Source: Squalus acanthias (Eukaryota). Taken from it: DNA of 64,000 nucleotides. The notes beneath the pieces are model-generated. The model saw only the letters and a program-made list of their open reading frames with translations, searched no databases and was not told the DNA's origin. Location: NCBI GenBank assembly GCA_030390025.1, contig CM059432.1, positions 9,238,001-9,302,000 on the forward strand, in the 5' to 3' direction. The translations under genes and the position numbers were made by a program. Below are positions 8,588 through 21,289 of the stretch, piece after piece; positions within the stretch are counted from its first letter, which is position 1, and every line of letters starts with the position of its first letter.

Positions 8588-10224
8588 TGTAAGGGATTTG
8601 ACCGTGCGTGTCTCGCAGCCTGTGAGATTCACGCGGCTCTGTGCAGCCTGTATGTCAGTGCGGGTTTAGGCCTTGTTGCCTGTTCTGGTCTCCAGCCAGT
8701 CTGGGAGCACTAGACACACCTGTGAGTGGTTCGAATCACTCGCCCTTACGGTTCTAGACACTGGACTTAGATGCGAGAGCAGTAATGGAGATGAAACTCA
8801 TGTAGACTCGGTTGAATGGTACGAAATGGAAAATCTTTATTGCATGATATTTAAGATTACGAAATACATGTCATAAGCACAGATTAATGACAGTACAATC
8901 TTACAAGCAGTTATATAGCTGATCCTAGGGAAACGAGGAACGAACGACACACCGTAAATAGGGGCACACATTACAAGTATCCTTAATACTTAAACCCTCC
9001 CCTATCAATATCTGTCCTAGCTAGATTCGTAGGATTTCGAGACTCATGCTCACCACTCGTGATAACTCGGAGAAATTCCTAATAGCTGATCGGATGTTTT
9101 CCACCGCAGCACCCACGTGTCGGTCAGGAGGTCTCCTGGTCCCACTTGTTTACTTGCTTCTGCTCCGGCTAGCAGGCTGGACCGTCTGCTGTGATGAAGA
9201 TCTGTGTTGGTTGGTTTAACAGGTACTTTCCGAATACAGACCAGTCAATATCATCTTTGACGATCCGTTCTTGCAAGTTCAAAGAAGTCTTCCTGGCAAG
9301 GAAAACTTGGCTGTTCGACCTACAGGCACGGTCGGGATTTACTGACCGTGGCGATGAGTATGGTCTTCCTCTCTTCTCATCTCATCTCATCTCATCTCAT
9401 CTCGGGCCTTTGGTTCCGATGCCAGTTACCAACATAGGTCTTCGTTACGCGACACAAGGTAGATCCGAACGGATCAGAAAGTTCAACAGTCTTTTTCAAA
9501 GAGGCACCAGGCAAGCAGGAACAAGACTACGAGTCAAAAACACAGGAGCAGCCACGAGGTTACGAGTCGATCGGATAAGAGAATAAGAGAAAGATGGACG
9601 GTTGGAGCTTGTAATTATAGTACAAAATCTTCCGTTTCCCGCCCAACCTTAATGTCCTTTCTTTTGTTTGGGTCTGGCGCTCAAATGTCTTGTATGGGTG
9701 ATCTCCGTTCTTAACGGGTTTCGGGGCTACTCGTAAATGTCTGAGTACCTGTTAATATTTCTCCCATTGTTAAATCGGTCGGTGTTCTCCCTGGAGGGGT
9801 TTTGGGGCTTCCAAGTGTTTTGTATAACTACCCGCTAAACGGCTCTCTCATCGTAGAGTCGTTGGGATTTTACATATTAATGTCTTTTGGATGGGCCCTT
9901 GATTACTTGGTACAATAGCTTTCATTCGTACCTGGGAGACCGATTTCAGTATTTATGTGTATACTGCAAACCCATAATGTCTCGTATATTATCTTCAATG
10001 TGCTGGATCTTAATCGATCTTGCACAAATGTTTATTGGAACGCCATCTTGTCTGCCTGTCGAAAAGTCTAGAATGTTCTGTCACGAGGTGCGGCGGCCAT
10101 TTTACAGGCTGCTTGTGTCCACTTTGAGAAACCTGACAGCATTCTGCTGAAATAAAAGCTGTTTGAACGAAACTATGTGTTTTCTCCTTATTAATAAAAA
10201 TCGCGATATATTGCGAATTCTACA
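8588..10224 (-). repeat. 3' LTR (1637 bp)
   Basis: Direct repeat of 19648-21289. Minus-strand AATAAA at 8836-8841, TATA-like TATAATT near 9612-9618, and an internal (ctcat)n microsatellite. Confidence 0.97.
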
Positions 10225-10236
10225 GTCCCTCCTGTT
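10225..10236 (-). other. Polypurine tract
   Basis: Minus-strand AACAGGAGGGAC lies immediately before the TGTAG start of the 3' LTR. Confidence 0.8.
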
Positions 10237-10675
10237 GATGCGAATAACTCCGCTTATCGTATCAAAAATCATAGTGGTGAGCAATATTATCTCGATTTTC
10301 TCCGAATCCAGCCAATTAATCCCATAACTTTAACCTAGCTAGGGTTCCGGTGTCGTCCTTATTTCCCAAGAAAATTACATTTTATATCATCGTAGGCATT
10401 ATTTGCCTTTAAACTTACACCACTTGTTTTCCTTCCCGGTGTAACCAGGCCGATGCCTCTCGTATCACCTGTATATTCATCTTTTTATTCAGGGAAAGGA
10501 AAAACAAAACCCAAAACCAAACAATCATTTTTAACTATAACACCATCACCAAAATAATCAACACCACACTCTTAAAACATGTCGAGTTCCCAACGTATTT
10601 ACAGTCTTTGTAAATCATGATCGAGTACAAACTTCCGCGGTGCACGTGGCGAGCGGGAGTGACGCCATTTTCCGA

Positions 10676-13186
10676 TCACACGGTGCTTTCATCGTGCACG
10701 CGCACGTAACGTTCTCGCCACTCTCCCGTGTTTTCATGCTTGGTGAGGCGTTTGTCTCTTTTACAATGTACGACCAATAGGTACACTACAATAAAAACTT
10801 GGCATACTACTAAAATGTGGGAGGCTACCCTGATCCATGAAGGTACTTCAATATTGGTGAACAGATTCCACCACGGTGGAATTACTATATCCAGAATGTC
10901 TGTTCCTATTTCGACAGTTTTCTGCTCTAATGTATAAAAATGTTTCTGTGACACCGCGACGGCTTTTAAAAGCTTGGTGAGGTGTTCAGGGAGAGGGGGA
11001 ATGAGGTATCCGAAATGCGCGACGAATCGCTGCAAGTCGGTGAAATTCTCTTTTACTGTGAGATGAACAGTGGATGGTTCAGGGATTGGGACAATTCGCT
11101 GTTGTGCTACTTGAACTTCCGCCCTGGGTTTAAAACAGAAACTGCTGTCACTCACCGGACACCGGCTACGGTTTCCATGCTGGTAGTGTTGCGCTGCAGT
11201 GGTAACACAATATGTTCCACCCCCGATGTATGCTACCTGCGGAGGCACATGATCTTGTGCCATTGCCTCCATGGTGCAATTCATGGACTTGGCGCCAGCC
11301 GTTCTGAACCCGCACTGTGGTGTTAAAAAGGCATTCAAGTGCTGGGGGCACAGTATTATGTGTGCTCCCCTGCCACGACAACCAGAGAGATCTGTACCTG
11401 TCATCGTTTGCTCCCAGCGGATGACGTAAGGTGGAACCGCTGCATAGCGAATGTGGGCTCCCCCCTGAATGACACCAATGTTCTCTACCCGATACACCGG
11501 GGCGGGCTTTGTTGTGTCGCCCAAAACCGGCATACGTAATACTATTCCCATAATAGTATGGTTTGATCGTCCGCAGTCCACGGGGACTGGGTAAGCTTCT
11601 GAAGCTAGCCTGAGCTGGCACGGGCTTAATGCGTTCTGAAAAGGGTGGAGCGCCCGCAGGTGTTTGTTACTTATCCAGGACGGGACCAAACCTTGTTTTA
11701 AATCCTCCAAATTACTGCGGCCCTCGCCCAGTAACCACGCCCCGTAAAGCACGCACACCTCGTTCTGCGCAGCTTGATCGGATGCATTCCGATCTTCCCT
11801 AATCAGGGCATTTACCGTCTTTGCATGTTTCTCTAACTCTGCTATAATTTCCTTTAAATGGAGAGTCATGGCTTGGTCCTCGTGTAAACCCGACCCTACC
11901 ACTTTGTTCTCATCTGTTAGAATGTCTTTTAATTGTGTCTTTAAACCATTAATCTGGGTCTGCAGCTCCACACTGTCTAGAGCGTTGACCACAGATGTAC
12001 CCGTGTTAAAAGCAGTGAACGCGTCGTTCACCAAACCCCTTCTTTGCCTCCCTACTTGATCCAAAACTTCCTGCGGTGCGGTGTACAAACTTGTTTTATC
12101 AATTTCCGCGAAATCGAATTCGTAAAATTGTCTGAACATCTTGGTCAACAGGACCTGATACAACTGTTCCATCTTTTTGGGGCACCACTCTGGTAACCGC
12201 ACCTCGGTGAGATTTAAAATCACCGAGGCCACCGCGTAATGTACCCCCTGAAATAGTATCTGGTCTGTGGGGACCAGTACCAAACCATTCCCGGGTCCCT
12301 TACTAGTTTTAGGGCACCCTTCCTCTTCAGCTAGAACCACCGGAATCGTGGGCGGGGCTTTGCGTGGGCGCGTAATGAGCTCAGTGGCATTTACCGGGAT
12401 CGAAGAGTATGGGGCTCCGCACCCCTTGGTGTTCGCATCCCACCTCATCCCCTGTCCGTTATCCTGCCATTGATTAATGAAAAATATGGATATGCCTTTG
12501 GGGCAAGGGTATTTTGACCCCCACATGCATACATAAATTCCCTCATCCGGTTCCCACCATTTGTCCCAACAGACTCTCACTTGTCCGTTTGTCCCCGTAA
12601 TTGTCCGATGGGTATTATTACCCAGTCGTTCCCACTCGACCGAAGAGTTCCTCATAGTTTTGCTCAGCTTTCGCAGCCACCACCATCGGCTCAATGGGAC
12701 ATTCCCACTACAAGTCAAACAAATCCGTTTGCCGACGGTGACGCTGATCCTGGGTGCGATGATCCTTACTTTGGGGCACATTAAAGAAGTCTCTTGGTAG
12801 GCAAACCCCGATGTGCTAGAATACTCCGTTGAGTTCGTTCCCAGCCATCCTGGCCACCTTCCCTTGTGGAAATAGGTGCTGGTCTCCTCTGCCTCCCGTC
12901 TTCCGGTCCCATCCACCGCGATGGGGGCCGTGTCCCCGGAGCATCCAAACACCACGACATCCTTGGTGCGGCCTCGATAGGCCAATCCACATCCGATTGC
13001 CGCGAGCAATACTAGAATTCGTTCCATCCTTCCTTGGTTCCTGTGATCAGATAGAATGAGGTAGCCAGCCTCGCAAGAGTCTCTGGCTTTTGTGAAGGGT
13101 GAGCGGGTCCCCTGACCTCGCCTCACGTAAACTTCAATGTTCGCTGGATAAACTTTAACTAAACCTATCTTTAAAGCTCCCATCAT
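10676..13186 (-). CDS. env: Envelope glycoprotein: signal peptide, Ig-like domain, F-type class I fusogen, TM anchor (probable start Met54 at 13027)
   Basis: 836-codon ORF with an MERILVLLAAIGCGLA signal, RQRR|GLVNDAF furin site at 12038-12049, heptad repeat, Cys-rich ectodomain, N-glycosylation sequons, a hydrophobic ILVVCQVFIVVYLLVV segment and a short tail. Confidence 0.92.
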   Translation of the reverse strand: MMGALKIGLVKVYPANIEVYVRRGQGTRSPFTKARDSCEAGYLILSDHRNQGRMERILVLLAAIGCGLAYRGRTKDVVVFGCSGDTAPIAVDGTGRREAEETSTYFHKGRWPGWLGTNSTEYSSTSGFAYQETSLMCPKVRIIAPRISVTVGKRICLTCSGNVPLSRWWWLRKLSKTMRNSSVEWERLGNNTHRTITGTNGQVRVCWDKWWEPDEGIYVCMWGSKYPCPKGISIFFINQWQDNGQGMRWDANTKGCGAPYSSIPVNATELITRPRKAPPTIPVVLAEEEGCPKTSKGPGNGLVLVPTDQILFQGVHYAVASVILNLTEVRLPEWCPKKMEQLYQVLLTKMFRQFYEFDFAEIDKTSLYTAPQEVLDQVGRQRRGLVNDAFTAFNTGTSVVNALDSVELQTQINGLKTQLKDILTDENKVVGSGLHEDQAMTLHLKEIIAELEKHAKTVNALIREDRNASDQAAQNEVCVLYGAWLLGEGRSNLEDLKQGLVPSWISNKHLRALHPFQNALSPCQLRLASEAYPVPVDCGRSNHTIMGIVLRMPVLGDTTKPAPVYRVENIGVIQGGAHIRYAAVPPYVIRWEQTMTGTDLSGCRGRGAHIILCPQHLNAFLTPQCGFRTAGAKSMNCTMEAMAQDHVPPQVAYIGGGTYCVTTAAQHYQHGNRSRCPVSDSSFCFKPRAEVQVAQQRIVPIPEPSTVHLTVKENFTDLQRFVAHFGYLIPPLPEHLTKLLKAVAVSQKHFYTLEQKTVEIGTDILDIVIPPWWNLFTNIEVPSWIRVASHILVVCQVFIVVYLLVVHCKRDKRLTKHENTGEWRERYVRVHDESTV

Positions 13187-13316
13187 TTTATCGTTTTCTG
13201 TTAAAATTAAAACTACAAACTTAACCTTATTAAAACTATAAACTTAAACTTGAACTATGAACTTAAAACTTAAAACTTATTACTGTACAGCGCCGCCCGT
13301 TCTCAGGGCGGCCCCT

Positions 13317-14030
13317 TTAAATTCTGAGAAGGCTGCTGCGAGCTCTTACCGACCTTGGGAGGGCTCTGACCTTTTCCTCTGATCTGCCGCAGCCTGTTTC
13401 TGTACTGACCCCTTCCTCTGATCTGCCGCAGCCTGTTTCTGCACTGACCCCTTCCTCTGATCTGCCGCAGCCTGTTACTGCTACGATGGGGCCGGGCTGT
13501 ATCTGGGCTGCCTTAACCTTGAGTCTGCGCCTTGGAACAGACTGGGGCCATACCCATATCTTCTTGGGCTGGGGTTCTCTACTTGACCTACGGGGAGTTG
13601 TCAGGGGCGGGGGTTCCGTGACTGACGGACCGGGTTCCGAGACTTCCATCGGGACGACCTGTGGTTCCACCACAGTCGCTGGCTCCGCCTCCGCTGACTC
13701 CGCCTCCCTAACCTCGGGGCTCGCAGTTTGTGGCTCCGCCCTGCTCGGCCCAGCAGGCGGCCCTTCACTCGCGATCTCTGCCTCCCCCGAGGGCGGGACG
13801 TTCAAAGCGGGCGGCTCTGTCTCTGGGGTCCTCACCGTCACTCCCTGTGCTCCCACAGCGGCTGGCTCCGCCTCCCCTAGCTCCTCCCTCCTGTCTTCGG
13901 GACCTGCAGCTTGTGTGTCCACCCTGTGTGGATCTCTATCTGCAGCCCGTGTCCTCCCTATACCTAAAATGGGAACGTTCCTTAGGTTCCCCAAAAACCA
14001 CTCGCCTTCATCACCATCCTCATCTGACTC
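13317..14030 (-). CDS. Pro/Ala/Glu-rich ORF in frame with pol (accessory ORF or Pol C-terminal extension)
   Basis: The frame is open from the codon after the pol TGA (ESDEDGDEGEWFLGNL..) to TAA at 13317. There is no ATG near the start; the track start is TTG. Confidence 0.6.
   Translation of the reverse strand, partial: ESDEDGDEGEWFLGNLRNVPILGIGRTRAADRDPHRVDTQAAGPEDRREELGEAEPAAVGAQGVTVRTPETEPPALNVPPSGEAEIASEGPPAGPSRAEPQTASPEVREAESAEAEPATVVEPQVVPMEVSEPGPSVTEPPPLTTPRRSSREPQPKKIWVWPQSVPRRRLKVKAAQIQPGPIVAVTGCGRSEEGVSAETGCGRSEEGVSTETGCGRSEEKVRALPRSVRARSSLLRI
13366..13476. repeat. 39-bp tandem repeat, about 3 copies
   Basis: The unit ctgaccccttcctctgatctgccgcagcctgtttctgca encodes TGCGRSEEGVSAE on the minus strand. 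Confidence 0.95.
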
Positions 14031-17000
14031 TCATCCCCACAAAAATGCTTCATGATCTTCCAGGATGTCTCCTCCCCTGATGCAAGCTGCTTTACCTGCC
14101 TGTGCGCCTTGTGGTCCTACCTGGGGCTGTGCTTCCCCACTGGCGGGGTTTACCCCTGTGGTTTTCCCTTGCGCACCTGGCTTGTACAGTTTGCATTGGT
14201 TTACGTGGAACCACTTAGTGCGTCGAGGTACTTTTACGGCGTATACCATGGGACTCGCCTTGTCTACAATGTTGTAGGGTCCCATATACAGTGTTTCCAG
14301 ACTCCCTACTCTGACGTAGTTTCTGACATTGACCTGGTCTCCTACTTCCCACTCCCGCGTTTTGCGGGGTTCCAGCAACAGGCGATTGCCCTGATGCTGC
14401 CTTCCCATGTTCCCAGCCGCCTGCTCATAAACCTGCTTCAGGCGCTCCAAGAGGGTCTGGGCGAACTTGTCCCTGCTTATCTCTTGGAGCTGACCCTCAG
14501 TGAGCACCGGCGCTAGCACATGGGTGGGGGTTCGCATGAGCCTCCCAGTCATCACCTCGTGCGGGGAGTACCCCGTACTTTTTGACTGGCTGGCCCGGAC
14601 CCCCATGAGGACTAAAGGCAGAACTTCCGCCCATTTTTGGGGCGAGTTCCTAGTCTCCTTCCTCAATTTCTCCTTCAGGGTCCGGTTCATGCGTTCAACA
14701 ATCCCGGATGACTGGGGATTGTGTGCTACGTGCCACTTCCCTTCAATGCCCAAAAGCATGAGGGTGTTCTGCATCACCTGGCCGGTGAAATGACTCCCTT
14801 GGTCTGATTCCACAAAACGGGGAAGTCCCCACCGCGAGAACACTTCCCGGACCAAGATTTTTGCTGTACCCAGTGCCGTAGCTGTTCGACAGGGGAAGGC
14901 TTCCACCCACTTGGAAAACACATCCACCAAGACGAGGCAGTATTTATAACCTCCCTGGGTGGTGGGCAGGGGTCCTATATAGTCGATCTGTATCGACTGC
15001 CATGGTCCCTCTACCCTTCTTACGTGTCCCATGGGCACCTTCCTTTTCTGGGGGTCTGGGTTGTTTGCAGCGCACACCAGACAGTTTGCACAGAACTCGC
15101 GGACTTGTTCCCTGAGCCCTGGCCACCATCCCGCTTGCTCTACCCGTTGCCAGGTAACCTCGGGCCCGGGGTGCCCTGCCCCTGGTCCCTCGTGAGCCAA
15201 CTGGAGGAATTCCCTCCTGTGCTGCTGTGGCACAACCCACTGCTCCTCGCGGAACAGCATGCCTTCCTTAACTGAGAGGGTTGCCGTACTGTACGGACCT
15301 TCTACCTGCCTCCCCTCAGCAATGGTTTTTAGGACTGCTTTTAGGGCGGGATCCTGGTCTTGGACGGTCTTAAGGTCTAGGGGCAATGCTACCCTGGTGT
15401 TCCCGGGATTCCCGTCCCTGCCTTGGATCGCTGCTATGGGTCTGGTCCCATAGGGGTCCCAGAAAATGCCGTTGCGGGCACCTTCCCTGGCTAGCGCATC
15501 CGCCTGTTGGTTGCCCTCCCCACGGGGCTCTGTGGAGGAGTGAGCTTTCACCTTATGGATGAAAATCTCTCCTTCCTCCCCTACTGCTGCTGCTAAGATC
15601 TTTTCCAGCAAGGGCTTCACCGTTAAAGGTCGCCCGTCCGCGGAGGTGTATCCACGGCGGGACCAAATGGCCAGGTATTCCGTACACGAATTGCAGGTGA
15701 ACATACTGTCCGAGCAAATCGTGTATGGGGTTGGGAAAATGTCTGGGTGGGTATCAACGTACACCACGGCAGACAGCTCAGCCTGCTGCGCGCTCATGGT
15801 GCTAGGGAGCTTGATCGCCAGGGCAAGGTCTGCCGCAGGGTCATAAACTCCACACCCTGTGAGTCGCTCGCCAGCAGATACTGTGCTAGACCCATCAACA
15901 TAAATCTCGCGCCCAGTGGGATGTATCCCGGCCCGTAAACCTATGTTGACGTCCCACACCCCTTCCACCGAACATCGGTGGGCTGTACCGGGGTATACCA
16001 AATTGGCCGCAAGCCTGGGCTCGCAAAGACCTTTTACTCTAAGATCCAACTGGGAGAGAAGAAGGGTCCAACGCGCAATGCGCGCGCTGCTTACGGTCCC
16101 ATCTTTAATCCTCCCATCCAGAAGCATCTTAGTTGGTGTGTGATGTGTGAGGAGAGTGATGGGAGAGAGCCCTGTGAAGATCGCTGATCTTTTCACAGCC
16201 CAATGCGTGGCTAAAAGGTGCCTTTCGCAATTGGAGAAACTTCTCTCCACATCCGTTAAAACTCTGGATGAATAGACAACCGGCCTCAGCTTGCCGTGAC
16301 GCTCTTGGAGCAGCACAGCGCTCAAGCTGTCTTCGCCGGCAGCTACCTCCAGAAAAAACTCCTTCCCCCCATCTATGGCCCCTAAGGCTGGCGCAGTCTG
16401 CAGATCCCTTTTTAACTTCTCGAAGGCTGCTTGGCAGCCCTCGTCCCAAGACCACTCCACTCCCTTATGGAGGAGTCGGAGGAGCGGCGCTGCTGTGGCC
16501 GCATAGTCTTCGATAAAATCCCTGCAGTAACCGGTCAGTCCCAAGAAGGACCTCACACCCCTTATGTTGTTGGGAATCGGTAACTCTTGCACCGACTCCC
16601 TCCTCGCTTTGTCTATGGCTCTTTCCCCAGCGCGTATGGTCAGTCCCAGGAATTTTACTTCCCGCTGACCGATACGTGCTTTCTTAGGATTTATTTTAAA
16701 ACCCTTTCTCGCTAGCAGCTCCAATAACTCGTCCAGCAGTGGTCCATGCTCCTCCCTTGAGTCCGTAAATAGGAGCAAATCATCCACGTACTGCACTATC
16801 TGATTGGGCTGACTAAACTCCCTTAAACTTCCTGCCATACACTGATGGAAAATACTGGGGCTATTGTGGAAACCCTGTGGCAGACAGTTCCATGTGTACT
16901 GTTGCCCTTTGAAAGTAAAGGCAAACTTGTACTGGTCCTCTCGCCTCAGCGGGATGGACCAAAAACCGTTCGAGATATCCAGCACCGTGAACATGGTCGC

Positions 17001-17855
17001 GGACGCTGGGATGCTCCCTATTAGGTCAGCAACTGCTGCTACCGTGGGCGCGCAGGCGGGAATGTTACTGTTAAGGACTCTGTAGTCCACCGTGGCTCTC
17101 CACGAATTATCCGGCTTCCTAACCGGCCATAATGGGGAGTTCACGTGTGTGGCTATCGGCCTCAACACGCCCTGCTGCACCAAGGAGGACATTGCTGTCT
17201 CCATATCGGGTTCTGCTTCTTTGGGGAAGTTATACTGCTTTTGGGGTCGGGTCATGGGGTCCCCATCTACGCTGACCTCAAACCCGATAACCCTCCCACA
17301 ATCGTGCTTGTGGGTTGCAAACGCGTGCATATTATCTGACACGTACGTTTGCATGTCCGTTGGGACATCTGCGACCATAAGCCTGAGGTCGTAGCCTCCG
17401 GATGGCTGTACGGTACACAGGACCCCTGTTTCTTCCTCCCCCGGAATCACTACTACCTCGCCTTTTTCACCCTTAGCCCCCCAGAGACAGTGATTTCTGA
17501 GGTCCACGAGGATCCCGTGTCCCGATAGAAGATCGGACCCGAGAATACCTCTTCCACCCCCCTCCTGCCATTCCATCAGTATACACTTCCACTTAAGGTG
17601 AAGTGCTCCCAAACGAATGGATAGCGGAAGGGAGAACGCGCCAACCTGTTCTTTTCCTGTGAACCCCGTTAACGTGAATGGGACCCTGGTAGATAGCGGC
17701 GAGTCAAAAGGGCTATCTGTATGGATTATGGTGCAAGAAGCTCCCGTGTCCAACAAATAACTACCCCTCTGTTTCTCTACCTCCATCTCCACCAAAGGTC
17801 GCTTCCACGCATCATAGCTAAGCGGACACAGGTAGACGGGCTGCGCGGGTTCTAG
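14031..17855 (-). CDS. pol: Pol polyprotein: protease, RT, degenerate RNase H (tether), RNase H, integrase
   Basis: LLDTGAS; LPQGFHNSP..YVDD; IYVDGSS..AQQAEL..SDS..KVKAH..GNQQAD; HHCC (HEGPGAGH..CLVC); DDE (DYIGP, SDQG, VERMN). The frame is open back to the gag stop. Confidence 0.97.
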   Translation of the reverse strand, partial: LEPAQPVYLCPLSYDAWKRPLVEMEVEKQRGSYLLDTGASCTIIHTDSPFDSPLSTRVPFTLTGFTGKEQVGAFSLPLSIRLGALHLKWKCILMEWQEGGGRGILGSDLLSGHGILVDLRNHCLWGAKGEKGEVVVIPGEEETGVLCTVQPSGGYDLRLMVADVPTDMQTYVSDNMHAFATHKHDCGRVIGFEVSVDGDPMTRPQKQYNFPKEAEPDMETAMSSLVQQGVLRPIATHVNSPLWPVRKPDNSWRATVDYRVLNSNIPACAPTVAAVADLIGSIPASATMFTVLDISNGFWSIPLRREDQYKFAFTFKGQQYTWNCLPQGFHNSPSIFHQCMAGSLREFSQPNQIVQYVDDLLLFTDSREEHGPLLDELLELLARKGFKINPKKARIGQREVKFLGLTIRAGERAIDKARRESVQELPIPNNIRGVRSFLGLTGYCRDFIEDYAATAAPLLRLLHKGVEWSWDEGCQAAFEKLKRDLQTAPALGAIDGGKEFFLEVAAGEDSLSAVLLQERHGKLRPVVYSSRVLTDVERSFSNCERHLLATHWAVKRSAIFTGLSPITLLTHHTPTKMLLDGRIKDGTVSSARIARWTLLLSQLDLRVKGLCEPRLAANLVYPGTAHRCSVEGVWDVNIGLRAGIHPTGREIYVDGSSTVSAGERLTGCGVYDPAADLALAIKLPSTMSAQQAELSAVVYVDTHPDIFPTPYTICSDSMFTCNSCTEYLAIWSRRGYTSADGRPLTVKPLLEKILAAAVGEEGEIFIHKVKAHSSTEPRGEGNQQADALAREGARNGIFWDPYGTRPIAAIQGRDGNPGNTRVALPLDLKTVQDQDPALKAVLKTIAEGRQVEGPYSTATLSVKEGMLFREEQWVVPQQHRREFLQLAHEGPGAGHPGPEVTWQRVEQAGWWPGLREQVREFCANCLVCAANNPDPQKRKVPMGHVRRVEGPWQSIQIDYIGPLPTTQGGYKYCLVLVDVFSKWVEAFPCRTATALGTAKILVREVFSRWGLPRFVESDQGSHFTGQVMQNTLMLLGIEGKWHVAHNPQSSGIVERMNRTLKEKLRKETRNSPQKWAEVLPLVLMGVRASQSKSTGYSPHEVMTGRLMRTPTHVLAPVLTEGQLQEISRDKFAQTLLERLKQVYEQAAGNMGRQHQGNRLLLEPRKTREWEVGDQVNVRNYVRVGSLETLYMGPYNIVDKASPMVYAVKVPRRTKWFHVNQCKLYKPGAQGKTTGVNPASGEAQPQVGPQGAQAGKAACIRGGDILEDHEAFLWG

Positions 17856-19643
17856 TCATGGGGTACTATTAGACGGTCCTGCGACCGCCACCTTTCCATG
17901 TGCACTCAATAAACTGCGCATGGCTCCTAACACTACTTCGAGGTCGTCGGGAGGGGTGGGTGCACCAGCTTCCCTAGCCGGGACAGGCGCCTGGGCTCGG
18001 ACTGCGGGATTTTTATCCTTGGAATCCTTCCAAGGGTTCCTGCAATGCTTGCGCCAGTGCCCTGTCTTCCCACACCCGTAACAAGCATTACTTGCCTGTG
18101 GGGCGCGATTACCCTCCTGATGCCACTCTCTTTGATACGGGGCTGCGGGTCGTACCTCATGTACTTTTCCCTTAAGGGGACGTGTTGCCATACCCCTTAT
18201 ATTGCGATATCCTAACGTGAGCCGATTCAAGACCGACTCTTCCGTAATGTTGGGGTCATTGGGATCAAACCATGTTTTTGCCTGCTCTCTGACGGCTGGT
18301 AAACTGTTGGCTATTATGCACCTAAGCCAATGAGCTAAACCGGTGCCTTCCACATCTTCGCGCTCTGGCGCACCTAGACAGCTGCGCTGATATACTGGCC
18401 ACAGCCTGTCGGCAAAAACCTTCGGGGGTTCTCCCTCCATCTGCACTGTCTGTCCCACTCTAGCAAACGGACCTTCATTGTCCGCCCCCAACACTTCCAG
18501 GACCTCATTCTTTAATGCCTCATAAGTCTTGGTTCCCCTCTTGCTCTCGCCTGAGAGACACTGAAGGATTGTACTGCCTAACGAAAACAACAGCATTTTT
18601 GCTGTTTCCCCATCATCGCAGCCGTTAATAGCTGCGGTTTGCTCAACTTCTCTGAAATGTACGGAAGGGTCGTCTGACTCGGTCAGCTTCCATACGTGAT
18701 TTATCATAACTCTCAGCTGGTGTGAGCTGTGAGGCAACACAAGCTGTCCGAGGAGATCCCCTGGTTCTTCCCCACCGTTTCTGTTTAGGCCCCTTTTTAT
18801 ACCCGTTACTGGATACAACGGTCCCTTTTCCACTTCTTTCTCAATGGGCTCTTTCGTTTCTTCCATTGCTTCCTCCCTAACCCAGGTTTCCGAATAGCTG
18901 GGTGGCGCGGAGGGCGCAGTGGCTACTACTTCCTCTGCTTTACTTGGTGGGGATTTCTTAAACTCCTCACTTACTAGCGGCTGGTGTGCTGACGGACTGA
19001 TAAGGCACACCATGCCGTGCGCTTTGTTCACGGCCTTTTTGAGGTGCTCTATCTCCCTTTTGCAAGCGCTATGATCAGCTCCCTGAAACTTATCCTCAAG
19101 GGCCAACTTATATGCCGCCCTAACCCCCGTTAAGCTCTCTTCCTGAGTTCTTATCTGGGCAGCTTGGCGGGCACATCGTTCCTTTAACCTGCTCTCATTT
19201 AACTTTGCCTCAGTGACCTGGCACTCGAGGTAATCTATCCTTGTTTTATGGTGACTGGAGATTTCCTGGCGTTCTTGGTGCAACGCACTTAAATTCCTAA
19301 TGAGCAATTCCCCTCCAGAGACCTTCTCATCCATTTCTCCCTCTAAATGACTGATTCGAGCTGTTAGCGCTGTAATGGTCTGGTTTGAAATCTGAACCTG
19401 CCTTTTGTAACACATAAGCCAGACTGCTTTCTCGAGTGTCTTTTTATGTTCTTTACTATCTGTCCACCTTTCGGCTGCCTCTAGCGGGCTTTTATCCGCT
19501 AACAATTCACTTATCCATTTCTTAGTTAGATTAACCTTTCCGAACACATAATCTGCTATCTTTTCCTGCATAACATTTCGTACAGTCATTCCAAAGTCTA
19601 ACACACTACCCTCTCGCTGCCAGTGTCCTGCCGCGGTCGCCAT
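17856..19643 (-). CDS. gag: Gag polyprotein
   Basis: 595 aa with an N-terminal coiled-coil-like region, PSAPPSY late motif, MHR-like QMEGEPPKVFADRL and a single CCHC knuckle CYGCGKTGHWRKHC. Confidence 0.93.
   Translation of the reverse strand: MATAAGHWQREGSVLDFGMTVRNVMQEKIADYVFGKVNLTKKWISELLADKSPLEAAERWTDSKEHKKTLEKAVWLMCYKRQVQISNQTITALTARISHLEGEMDEKVSGGELLIRNLSALHQERQEISSHHKTRIDYLECQVTEAKLNESRLKERCARQAAQIRTQEESLTGVRAAYKLALEDKFQGADHSACKREIEHLKKAVNKAHGMVCLISPSAHQPLVSEEFKKSPPSKAEEVVATAPSAPPSYSETWVREEAMEETKEPIEKEVEKGPLYPVTGIKRGLNRNGGEEPGDLLGQLVLPHSSHQLRVMINHVWKLTESDDPSVHFREVEQTAAINGCDDGETAKMLLFSLGSTILQCLSGESKRGTKTYEALKNEVLEVLGADNEGPFARVGQTVQMEGEPPKVFADRLWPVYQRSCLGAPEREDVEGTGLAHWLRCIIANSLPAVREQAKTWFDPNDPNITEESVLNRLTLGYRNIRGMATRPLKGKVHEVRPAAPYQREWHQEGNRAPQASNACYGCGKTGHWRKHCRNPWKDSKDKNPAVRAQAPVPAREAGAPTPPDDLEVVLGAMRSLLSAHGKVAVAGPSNSTP
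19625..19642 (-). other. Primer-binding site, tRNA-Arg(UCG)
   Basis: Minus-strand TGGCGACCGCGGCAGGAC is complementary to the 3' 18 nt (GTCCTGCCGCGGTCGCCA) of vertebrate tRNA-Arg-TCG as I recall it. It lies 5 nt from the LTR end. Confidence 0.88.
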
Positions 19644-19647
19644 TTTC

Positions 19648-21289
19648 TGTAAGGGATTTGACCGTGCGTGTCTCGCAGCCTGTGAGATTCACGCGGCTCT
19701 GTGCAGCCTGTATGTCAGTGCGGGTTTAGGCCTTGTTGCCTGTTCTGGTCTCCAGCCAGTCTGGGAGCACTAGACACACCTGTGAGTGGTTCGAATCACT
19801 CGCCCTTACGGTTCTAGACACTGGACTTAGATGCGAGAGCAGTAATGGAGATGAAACTCATGTAGACTCGGTTGAATGGTACGAAATGGAAAATCTTTAT
19901 TGCATGATATTTAAGATTACGAAATACATGTCATAAGCACAGATTAATGACAGTACAATCTTACAAGCAGTTATATAGCTGATCCTAGGGAAACGAGGAA
20001 CGAACGACACACCGTAAATAGGGGCACACATTACAAGTATCCTTAATACTTAAACCCTCCCCTATCAATATCTGTCCTAGCTAGATTCGTAGGATTTCGA
20101 GACTCATGCTCACCACTCGTGATAACTCGGAGAAATTCCTAATAGCTGATCGGATGTTTTCCACCGCAGCACCCACGTGTCGGTCAGGAGGTCTCCTGGT
20201 CCCACTTGTTTACTTGCTTCTGCTCCGGCTAGCAGGCTGGACCGTCTGCTGTGATGAAGATCTGTGTTGGTTGGTTTAACAGGTACTTTCCGAATACAGA
20301 CCAGTCAATATCATCTTTGACGATCCGTTCTTGCAAGTTCAAAGAAGTCTTCCTGGCAAGGAAAACTTGGCTGTTCGACCTACAGGCACGGTCGGGATTT
20401 ACTGACCGTGGCGATGAGTATGGTCTTCCTCTCTTCTCATCTCATCTCATCTCATCTCATCTCATCTCGGGCCTTTGGTTCCGATGCCAGTTACCAACAT
20501 AGGTCTTCGTTACGCGACACGAGGTAGATCCGAACGGATCAGAAAGTTCAACAGTCTTTTTCAAAGAGGCACCAGGCAAGCAGGAACAAGACTACGAGTC
20601 AAAAACACAGGAGCAGCCACGAGGTTACGAGTCGATCGGATAAGAGAATAAGAGAAAGATGGACGGTTGGAGCTTGTAATTATAGTACAAAATCTTCCGT
20701 TTCCCGCCCAACCTTAATGTCCTTTCTTTTGTTTGGGTCTGGCGCTCAAATGTCTTGTATGGGTGATCTCCGTTCTTAACGGGTTTCGGGGCTACTCGTA
20801 AATGTCTGAGTACCTGTTAATATTTCTCCCATTGTTAAATCGGTCGGTGTTCTCCCTGGAGGGGTTTTGGGGCTTCCAAGTGTTTTGTATAACTACCCGC
20901 TAAACGGCTCTCTCATCGTAGAGTCGTTGGGATTTTACATATTAATGTCTTTTGGATGGGCCCTTGATTACTTGGTACAATAGCTTTCATTCGTACCTGG
21001 GAGACCGATTTCAGTATTTATGTGTATACTGCAAACCCATAATGTCTCGTGTATTATCTTCAATGTGCTGGATCTTAATCGATCTTGCACAAATGTTTAT
21101 TGGAACGCCATCTTGTCTGCCTGTCGAAAAGTCTAGAATGTTCTGTCACGAGGTGCGGCGGCCATTTTACAGGCTGCTTGTGTCCACTTTGAGAAACCTG
21201 ACAGCATTCTGCTGAAATAAAAGCTGTTTGAACGAAACTATGTGTTTTCTCCTTATTAATAAAAATCGCGATATATTGCGAATTCTACA
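19648..21289 (-). repeat. 5' LTR (1642 bp)
   Basis: By eye it differs from the 3' LTR only by one extra ctcat unit and two A/G substitutions (about 9456 vs 20521 and 9986 vs 21051). Confidence 0.97.

Follow-up and report, generated by a model that had tools for sequence, protein, structure and literature searches.

A provirus in the genome of Squalus acanthias encodes an envelope protein (Env) in which a fusion core with the predicted fold of the paramyxovirus and pneumovirus F protein is preceded by a domain that probably belongs to the immunoglobulin superfamily (IgSF). The provirus, a retrovirus-like element with the order long terminal repeat (LTR), gag, pol, env, LTR, lies in a 64,000-nucleotide stretch of contig CM059432.1 (assembly GCA_030390025.1, positions 9,238,001 to 9,302,000 of the forward strand), hereafter the window; positions are counted from its first letter. 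The env open reading frame (ORF) occupies 10676..13186 on the minus strand and is translated without interruption into 836 amino acids followed by a stop codon. The Ig-like segment at 12473..12775 (minus strand) maps to Env residues 138-238, and the plus strand over this segment holds no ORF of at least 80 amino acids. The segment is located within an N-terminal extension of the F2-like subunit of about 228 residues, and on balance we favour a role for the Ig-type domain as the receptor-binding head of a surface subunit (SU). A preliminary description, made from the letters of this DNA, had proposed that an Ig domain captured from a host stands between the signal peptide and the F2-like segment, giving attachment and fusion on one chain.

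The Ig-like signature is supported by several kinds of sequence comparison. The positions and spacings listed in the preliminary description agree with a residue-by-residue script check: C156, C159, W168-W170, C206, D214-E-G-I-Y-V-C220, C228, and C256 are all present. Cys159 is followed by Trp170 after 11 residues and by Cys220 after 61 residues, which lie within the IgSF ranges of 10-15 and 55-75, respectively. The motif DEGIYVC220 conforms to the D-x-G-x-Y-x-C pattern of the IgSF F strand and aligns to DEGVYKC of CRTAM. The Pfam model Ig_3 matches the 101-residue piece with an E-value of 0.013 over profile positions 5-74 of 78. In a phmmer search of PDB sequences, 10 of the 11 matches were Ig chains (best E 0.41), a suggestive outcome for a single-sequence test. 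A profile of the segment in this family (A5; four sequences, 53-72% identical) gave six PDB matches at E ≤1, all of them IgSF proteins, the best being the IgV domain of CRTAM (E 0.0095), a value that is borderline for the family taken alone. This alignment covers the domain in full (profile positions 9-98) and keeps the B-strand Cys, the Trp, and the DEGxYxC motif in register. The broader profile A4, built from 14 segments of four lineages (11-21% identical to each other), gave 197 PDB matches at E ≤0.01; of the best 60, 58 are antibodies or IgSF proteins by name, and the other two are a bacterial Ig-like repeat protein and an entry whose name is uninformative. Single-domain matches of A4 include CD8-alpha (E 4.2e-4) and an antibody heavy-chain variable (VH) domain (E 0.0012), aligned from strand A/B to strand G. 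Among the A4 columns, only G152, C159, and W170 reach a conservation of at least 90%; the F-strand Cys reaches at least 70%. Moreover, an ESM Atlas feature search with residues 130-245, which we treat as a lead only, returned Ig Pfam families in nine of the ten rows shown and no family in the tenth (scores 0.89-0.91).

Compared with cellular V/I-set domains (the CRTAM IgV domain, CD8-alpha, antibody V domains, neurotrimin, and DIPs), the Env segment shares the B-strand Cys, the C-strand Trp, and the F-strand DxGxYxC motif in register. It differs from them in an additional Cys pair, C156/C206, and in a W-rich E-F loop (WDKWW); furthermore, no close cellular relative was found, and its scores remain below the Pfam gathering cut-offs. 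The eight cysteines of residues 71-290 could form four pairs, for which C159-C220, C156-C206, C228-C256, and C82-C137 are the candidate disulfides. C291, which belongs to a CP motif at the start of the core, probably pairs inside the core, because it is kept even in a relative that lacks the N-terminal module.

These positions might also resemble an Ig domain by chance, within a Cys/Trp-rich region that adopts another fold or no stable fold, and a number of results that weigh against an Ig domain would suit such an explanation. The Env segment stays below the gathering score of every Pfam Ig model (at best 16.5 bits against 30); likewise, nine of the 13 segments from relatives have no Ig match at E ≤1, and none reaches the Pfam cut-off. 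The PDB is rich in antibodies, which inflates the finding that all matches are Ig, and a family-wide profile produced only weak Ig matches among PDB sequences. The profile of the Chiloscyllium-type segment (A6) matched VH domains only, at non-significant E-values of 0.14 or more, and that of the Pelodytes/Mantella type (A7) is unsupported, with one Ig protein among four matches (E 0.97). Comparisons of the lineage profiles by hhalign were not significant either (A5-A6, P 0.066, in the right register; A5-A7, 0.11; A5-A8, 0.25; A6-A7, 0.15). An AlphaFold2 domain model of Env 70-300, computed from an alignment of eight close relatives, has a mean predicted local distance difference test (pLDDT) score of 36, and a Foldseek search of the PDB with this model returned nothing at E ≤0.001 and only scattered, unrelated rows. 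In the full-length model, based on 28 relatives, pLDDT over the segment is 36-57. With both models of low confidence here, the Ig fold is assigned from sequence profiles, and the beta-sandwich named in the preliminary description is a putative one. The failed models nevertheless weigh little either way, since alignments of 8 and 28 rows are shallow, and such depths commonly account for low pLDDT. The strands that the full-length model places, with low confidence, at residues 155-160, 168-174, 194-199, 202-207, 216-222, and 232-234 sit at the expected B, C, D, E, F, and G positions. Chance resemblance is also at odds with the agreement of all independent sequence tests on superfamily and register, with a conservation that peaks at the three defining positions even across such divergent lineages, and with a set of cysteines that can all be paired. 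It is therefore regarded as improbable, and an IgSF-type domain at residues 138-238 as very likely.

The remainder of the ectodomain is understood from its predicted fold. In the full-length model, pLDDT is 70-95 over residues 290-360 and 470-700, and 83-92 over residues 290-350. A Foldseek search with this model found 238 PDB chains at E ≤0.001, headed by F of human parainfluenza virus 3 (hPIV3; E 4.9e-11); other leading matches were post-fusion F of respiratory syncytial virus and the F proteins of Langya virus, Newcastle disease virus, and parainfluenza virus 5. In a second structural search, all 50 rows listed were paramyxovirus or pneumovirus F proteins, with alignments starting at Env 296-298; in 48 of the 50 rows, this start lies opposite residues 6-38 of the F chain, i.e., the start of mature F2. 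Since all F alignments begin there, Env 71-297 has no counterpart in F, which accounts for the approximately 228 additional residues. These results uphold the proposal that an extra segment, located behind a signal-like stretch, fronts an F-type fusogen. At the sequence level, the relationship is not visible: PF00523 does not match Env at E ≤10 or any of 28 family members at E ≤1, and the family-wide profile found no F protein among PDB sequences. The F fold of the Env core is thus confirmed in the model by fold and not by sequence. Of the checks proposed in the preliminary description, Pfam yielded the sub-threshold Ig_3 match and nothing for PF00523, whereas AlphaFold and Foldseek returned the F fold for the core but no match for the model of residues 70-300.

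Env resembles paramyxovirus and pneumovirus F (PF00523) further in its furin-type site before a fusion peptide, its helices resembling heptad repeats A and B (HRA and HRB), and its C-terminal anchor. Directly after RQRR (380-383) comes a hydrophobic stretch that resembles a fusion peptide, GLVNDAFTAFNTGTSVVNAL; helices are predicted at 384-427, 436-497, and 733-764, and a transmembrane segment at 785-808. In contrast to F, which belongs to negative-strand RNA viruses and begins opposite Env 296-298, this protein is part of a retrovirus-like element. As the core itself is predicted to contain an Ig-like domain II, the possibility that the N-terminal segment is an internal copy of that domain was examined and rejected: blastp of residues 130-245 against 291-836 gave a best E-value of 3.6, and the profile comparison failed as well (E 0.076 with a negative score).

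The N-terminal module is a feature of the Env family, with counterparts in the same position in sharks, skates, and frogs, and is not private to this element. The closest named proteins are labelled Rhinoraja longicauda (72-75% identity) and Pristiophorus japonicus, and the Ig-like segment is 53-72% identical in relatives carrying these two labels. Full-length relatives at 19-31% identity occur in sharks (Mustelus, Chiloscyllium, Scyliorhinus) and frogs (Pelodytes, Mantella, Lithobates, Xenopus). In the shark and frog relatives, 140-180 residues separate the signal peptide from the motif CP..GP..GL, which opens the F2-like core and whose CP..GP part is kept in all full-length relatives. The automatic UniRef name of the Chiloscyllium relative is 'Ig-like domain-containing protein'. 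The Lithobates-type segment lacks the Cys pair and matches Pfam V-set with an E-value of 0.0016; its profile (A8) matched IgSF proteins in 12 of 14 cases in the PDB, led by CEACAM-type N domains, with a best E-value of 0.062 that is not significant alone. In the ESM Atlas, the segment of a frog relative returned mostly Ig families (scores 0.84-0.86), again as a lead only. Two further, older F-type env lineages, in both of which the module is contiguous with the F core, were found in the S. acanthias genome itself (loci L021-L030 and L031-L040). One of them is 54-79% identical to the Chiloscyllium protein and the other approximately 29-37% over aligned stretches that include the module; most copies of both contain stops. 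The survey of related env genes that had been proposed also revealed other arrangements. The Mustelus and Pristiophorus relatives (P0013, P0024, P0032) possess a different, Cys-rich N-terminal module, and in one protein of 584 amino acids (P0039) the signal peptide leads straight into CP..GP, with no N-terminal module and a complete F-type Env frame.

The distribution of the modules bears directly on their origin. A recent event in which this element itself took up an IgSF exon of its host would be in line with the canonical signature and with the known ability of viruses to acquire host IgSF domains. This explanation is very improbable: searches of about 5.8 and 1.8 billion proteins with this region revealed no host IgSF donor, all matches being Env-derived, and no host IgSF protein was present among the matches of three large protein searches. 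The segment is, moreover, already present in the Rhinoraja- and Pristiophorus-labelled relatives at the identities given above, and distant Env lineages, among them those of sharks and frogs and no fewer than two others in the S. acanthias genome, have modules at the same place. The word 'captured', in the sense of a recent event, accordingly finds no support. As the profile-profile comparisons were not significant, the modules may have one origin followed by fast divergence or may stem from several acquisitions.

Two side observations concern the gene models of relatives. In four shark and skate models (P0004, P0005, P0012, P0016), pieces of Env are joined to genes of the host, zinc-finger and Niban-like ones among them, probably as annotation chimeras across endogenous retrovirus insertions. 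A protein of 516 amino acids with the Rhinoraja label (P0003) matches Env 63-452 and then approximately 713-836, the middle of the F1-like part being absent.

With regard to function, the layout of Env would correspond to that of a retroviral SU and transmembrane (TM) pair. The SU-like part would comprise residues ~71-383, in the order pre-Ig segment (71-137), Ig-like domain (138-238), linker (239-297; about 59 residues), and F2-like strands and helix. In the F1-like TM part, the fusion peptide would become free on furin-type cleavage at residue 383. The Ig-like domain, carried on a flexible linker, would bind a cell-surface receptor, and receptor engagement would release the furin-primed F-like core, leading to refolding and membrane fusion. 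One chain would then do what HN, H, or G does for paramyxovirus F. Most paramyxoviruses rely on a separate attachment protein, and retroviral Envs as a rule bind their receptor via the N-terminal part of SU. We infer a receptor-binding head from this general rule, from the SU position of the domain, and from the contrast between a conserved core and modules that are divergent, swapped, or missing.

Other functions are conceivable, and two observations count against a receptor-binding head. In the one close comparison made, that with the Rhinoraja relative, the Ig-like segment (71% identity) has not diverged much more than the remainder of Env (F2 core, 75%; F1 N-terminus, 84%). At this depth, then, there is no clear sign of the rapid evolution that usually marks receptor-binding heads. 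In addition, the N-terminal-most strand of F and of foamy virus Env belongs to the membrane-proximal domain II, according to a study of foamy virus Env (Sci Adv 2024, PMC11468914). That would place the attachment point of the module at the base of the head and not at its apex, unless the linker lifts the module. Both observations would be compatible with the main alternative, an Ig-like domain that does not bind a receptor and instead serves as a shield or decoy over the core, as a prefusion clamp, or in folding or trafficking, attachment being mediated by the F-like head or the pre-Ig segment. By analogy with F-type proteins, attachment of the module to the F2-like N-terminus, at the domain II end, would suit such functions (PMC11468914). 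The complete frame of the module-less P0039 implies that the core can exist alone. Pneumovirus F, for its part, is able to mediate entry without an attachment protein. On the other hand, modules that differ strongly or are swapped beside an alignable core fit a host-range determinant better than a clamp, and the usual use of the N-terminal SU for receptor binding by retroviral Envs points the same way. The glycosylation pattern does not speak for a shield either: a scan of the Ig-like segment and its surroundings found three N-glycosylation sequons (N180 and N190 in or near the segment, N118 around it) and nothing resembling a glycan shield. A function other than receptor binding is consequently considered unlikely, and we lean towards the Ig-type domain as a receptor-binding head.

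A more general proposal is put forward tentatively: the F-type Envs of cartilaginous fishes and amphibians may carry an exchangeable N-terminal cassette, which is of the IgSF type, Cys-rich, or absent, and the Ig cassette described here may act as the head that binds the receptor and sets off the F core. This wider scheme is more doubtful than the role suggested for the single domain.

F-type Envs in retrovirus-like elements are not new. Lokiretroviruses are LTR elements of vertebrates whose pol encodes a dual RNase H and whose Env is related to the F proteins of Mononegavirales, as set out in the main text of the founding paper (Wang and Han 2020, PMC7947760). According to the same text, their Env has a signal peptide, an RXKR-type site, a fusion peptide, a coiled coil, and a TM segment, and some of them carry an SMC-like gene (PMC7947760). 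An F-like Env in lokiretroviruses is also reported in the main text of a second publication (PMC9040795), and a foamy-like N-terminal part is described for the Gag of a zebrafish lokiretrovirus (10.1101/2024.03.25.586437). The present element resembles lokiretroviruses in its LTRs, gag, dual-RNase-H pol, and env and in the Env features named above, but the relationship of its Env to F is by fold only. In particular, lokiretrovirus Env matches PF00523 with an E-value of 2.2e-7 in the main text of PMC7947760, whereas this Env has no match. The figure legend of the lokiretrovirus Env model in that paper mentions no N-terminal domain (PMC7947760). Taken together, the characters of the element fit a deep-branching, lokiretrovirus-like affiliation.

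The closest precedent for attachment and an F-type core on one chain is the Env of foamy viruses, in which an F-fold core (domains I-III) and the virus's own receptor-binding domain (RBD) share a chain, as stated in the study cited above (PMC11468914). There, the RBD is formed by the continuous residues 217-543, between two linkers to domain III and just before the furin site (PMC11468914). A leader peptide with a membrane span of its own is a further mark of foamy virus Env. In the S. acanthias Env, by comparison, the module precedes the entire F core and lies wholly N-terminal to the first core strand at residue 298; only about 20 residues separate the helix resembling heptad repeat C (337-359) from RQRR (380-383), and no RBD is inserted between them. 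Foamy virus Env chains were not among the rows listed in either structural search. The elements differ in gag as well, that of S. acanthias having a CCHC knuckle and a probable one-frame readthrough into pol.

Ig-like beta-sandwiches that bind a receptor and trigger a separate or downstream fusion machine are also represented by the N-terminal RBD of gammaretroviral SU and by the IgV-like core of herpes simplex virus (HSV) gD. The gammaretroviral RBD is not known to carry the canonical IgSF Cys-Trp-Cys signature, and HSV gD is a protein separate from the fusogen gB. To our knowledge, neither of them is joined to an F-type core.

The literature searched, supplements excluded, contains no report of an Ig domain in F-type retroviral Envs and none that joins lokiretroviruses and immunoglobulin. 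In the main texts of PMC7947760 and PMC9040795, the word 'immunoglobulin' and words for cartilaginous fishes are absent. The earlier statement that this arrangement had not been described thus appears to stand for an N-terminal Ig module and has to be qualified by the automatic UniRef name and by the one-chain precedent of foamy virus Env (PMC11468914). An F-type Env and the idea of attachment plus F on one chain are already known; what seems to be undescribed, the automatic database name aside, is the presence of an IgSF-type module at the N-terminus and its exchange between lineages.

If the proposed arrangement is correct, the S. acanthias Env would be the first F-type fusogen with an IgSF attachment domain on the same chain. 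Triggering of paramyxovirus-type F is usually studied with a separate attachment protein, and the family described here would offer a natural series, with this module, with another, or without any, for asking how F-type machines are triggered. A small Ig-type domain placed before F2, and swapped or dropped between lineages, would give a simpler natural system for this question. With this finding, the known range of F-type, lokiretrovirus-like Envs would come to include cartilaginous fishes, a group not named in the main text of the founding paper (PMC7947760).

The coordinates of the provirus and of the parts of Env are collected in the table.

Table. Features of the provirus and its Env in the 64,000-nucleotide window
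Feature	Env residues	Position in window	Strand	Basis or content
Provirus, LTR-gag-pol-env-LTR, 12.7 kb		8588..21289	minus	TTAA target-site duplication on both flanks; TG..CA ends
5' LTR, 1642 bp		19648..21289	minus	blastn LTR pair
gag ORF, 595 amino acids		17856..19643	minus	One CCHC knuckle
pol ORF: protease, reverse transcriptase, degraded RNase H-like tether, RNase H, integrase		14031..17786	minus	Pfam
Signal-peptide-like hydrophobic stretch MERILVLLAAIGCGLAY	54-70	12977..13027	minus	Read from translation; begins at M54
Pre-Ig segment with C82 and C137	71-137	12776..12976	minus	Invariant G, N, S, S, S, Y columns in alignment A2
Ig-like (V/I-type) segment	138-238	12473..12775	minus	C159 B strand, W170 C strand, DEGIYVC220 F strand; extra pair C156/C206
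Linker, Pro- and charged-rich, with C256	239-297	12296..12472	minus	pLDDT <50; ends in CP..GP..GL
F2-like part of F core	298-383	12038..12295	minus	Ends in furin-type RQRR 380-383; model range from 296-298 opposite F residues 23-38
F1-like ectodomain	384-784	10835..12037	minus	Fusion peptide, long HRA-like helix, beta-rich domains, HRB-like helix
Membrane anchor	785-808	10763..10834	minus	Sole hydropathy windows >1.6 in Env
3' LTR, 1637 bp		8588..10224	minus	blastn LTR pair

The hydrophobic stretch that begins at M54 aligns with the hydrophobic N-termini of relatives; its status as a signal peptide comes from reading the sequence, without a predictor. Env may start at either M1 or M54. In the pre-Ig segment, GRWPGWLGxNSxxYSS is kept among close relatives; the segment matches nothing known, and its pLDDT is below 50 in both AlphaFold models. 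No spliced env message was seen, in contigs from four sequencing runs without reported joints, none of the 14 runs being listed as RNA. The contigs of these four runs cover 30 of 30 bins of 10225-20200 at 90% likeness or more.

The two LTRs are 99.57% identical over 1642 columns in blastn, with two mismatches and one gap. Because of these near-identical LTRs, the TTAA duplication, and the open gag, pol, and env frames, the provirus looks very recent. A first look at the 3.7-Gb genome gave 5453 candidates, among which at least 150 copies have an Ig segment 98-100% identical to this one; for 82 of these 150, the surrounding frame is open over at least 800 amino acids. As the element is young and abundant and many of its env frames are open, Env function probably mattered for its spread until recently.

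The pol frame matches RVT_1 (E 1.9e-36), RT_RNaseH_2 (1.7e-20), RNase_H (1.2e-18), and rve (4.1e-15) in Pfam. Among PDB sequences, it is about equally close to Ty3 (2.5e-72), reverse transcriptase of the murine leukaemia virus type (1.2e-69), and foamy virus protease-reverse transcriptase (1.3e-63). For gag, there is no Pfam match at E ≤0.01. The gag and pro-pol genes share one frame with a single stop between them, and the protease motif LLDTGAS follows approximately 40 codons on (17700-17900, minus strand), which suggests that gag and pol are joined by stop-codon readthrough rather than by frameshifting. The first ATG of gag lies four bases past the 5' LTR and overlaps a TGG-starting stretch that resembles a primer-binding site; for this reason, the true start of gag may be a later Met. 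The N-terminal third of Gag (residues ~40-200) reads as a long coiled coil. Finally, the spacer between pol and env contains tandem repeats at 13366-13481 (39 bp, 3.0 copies, 94% match) and at 13206-13251 (23 bp, 2.0 copies).

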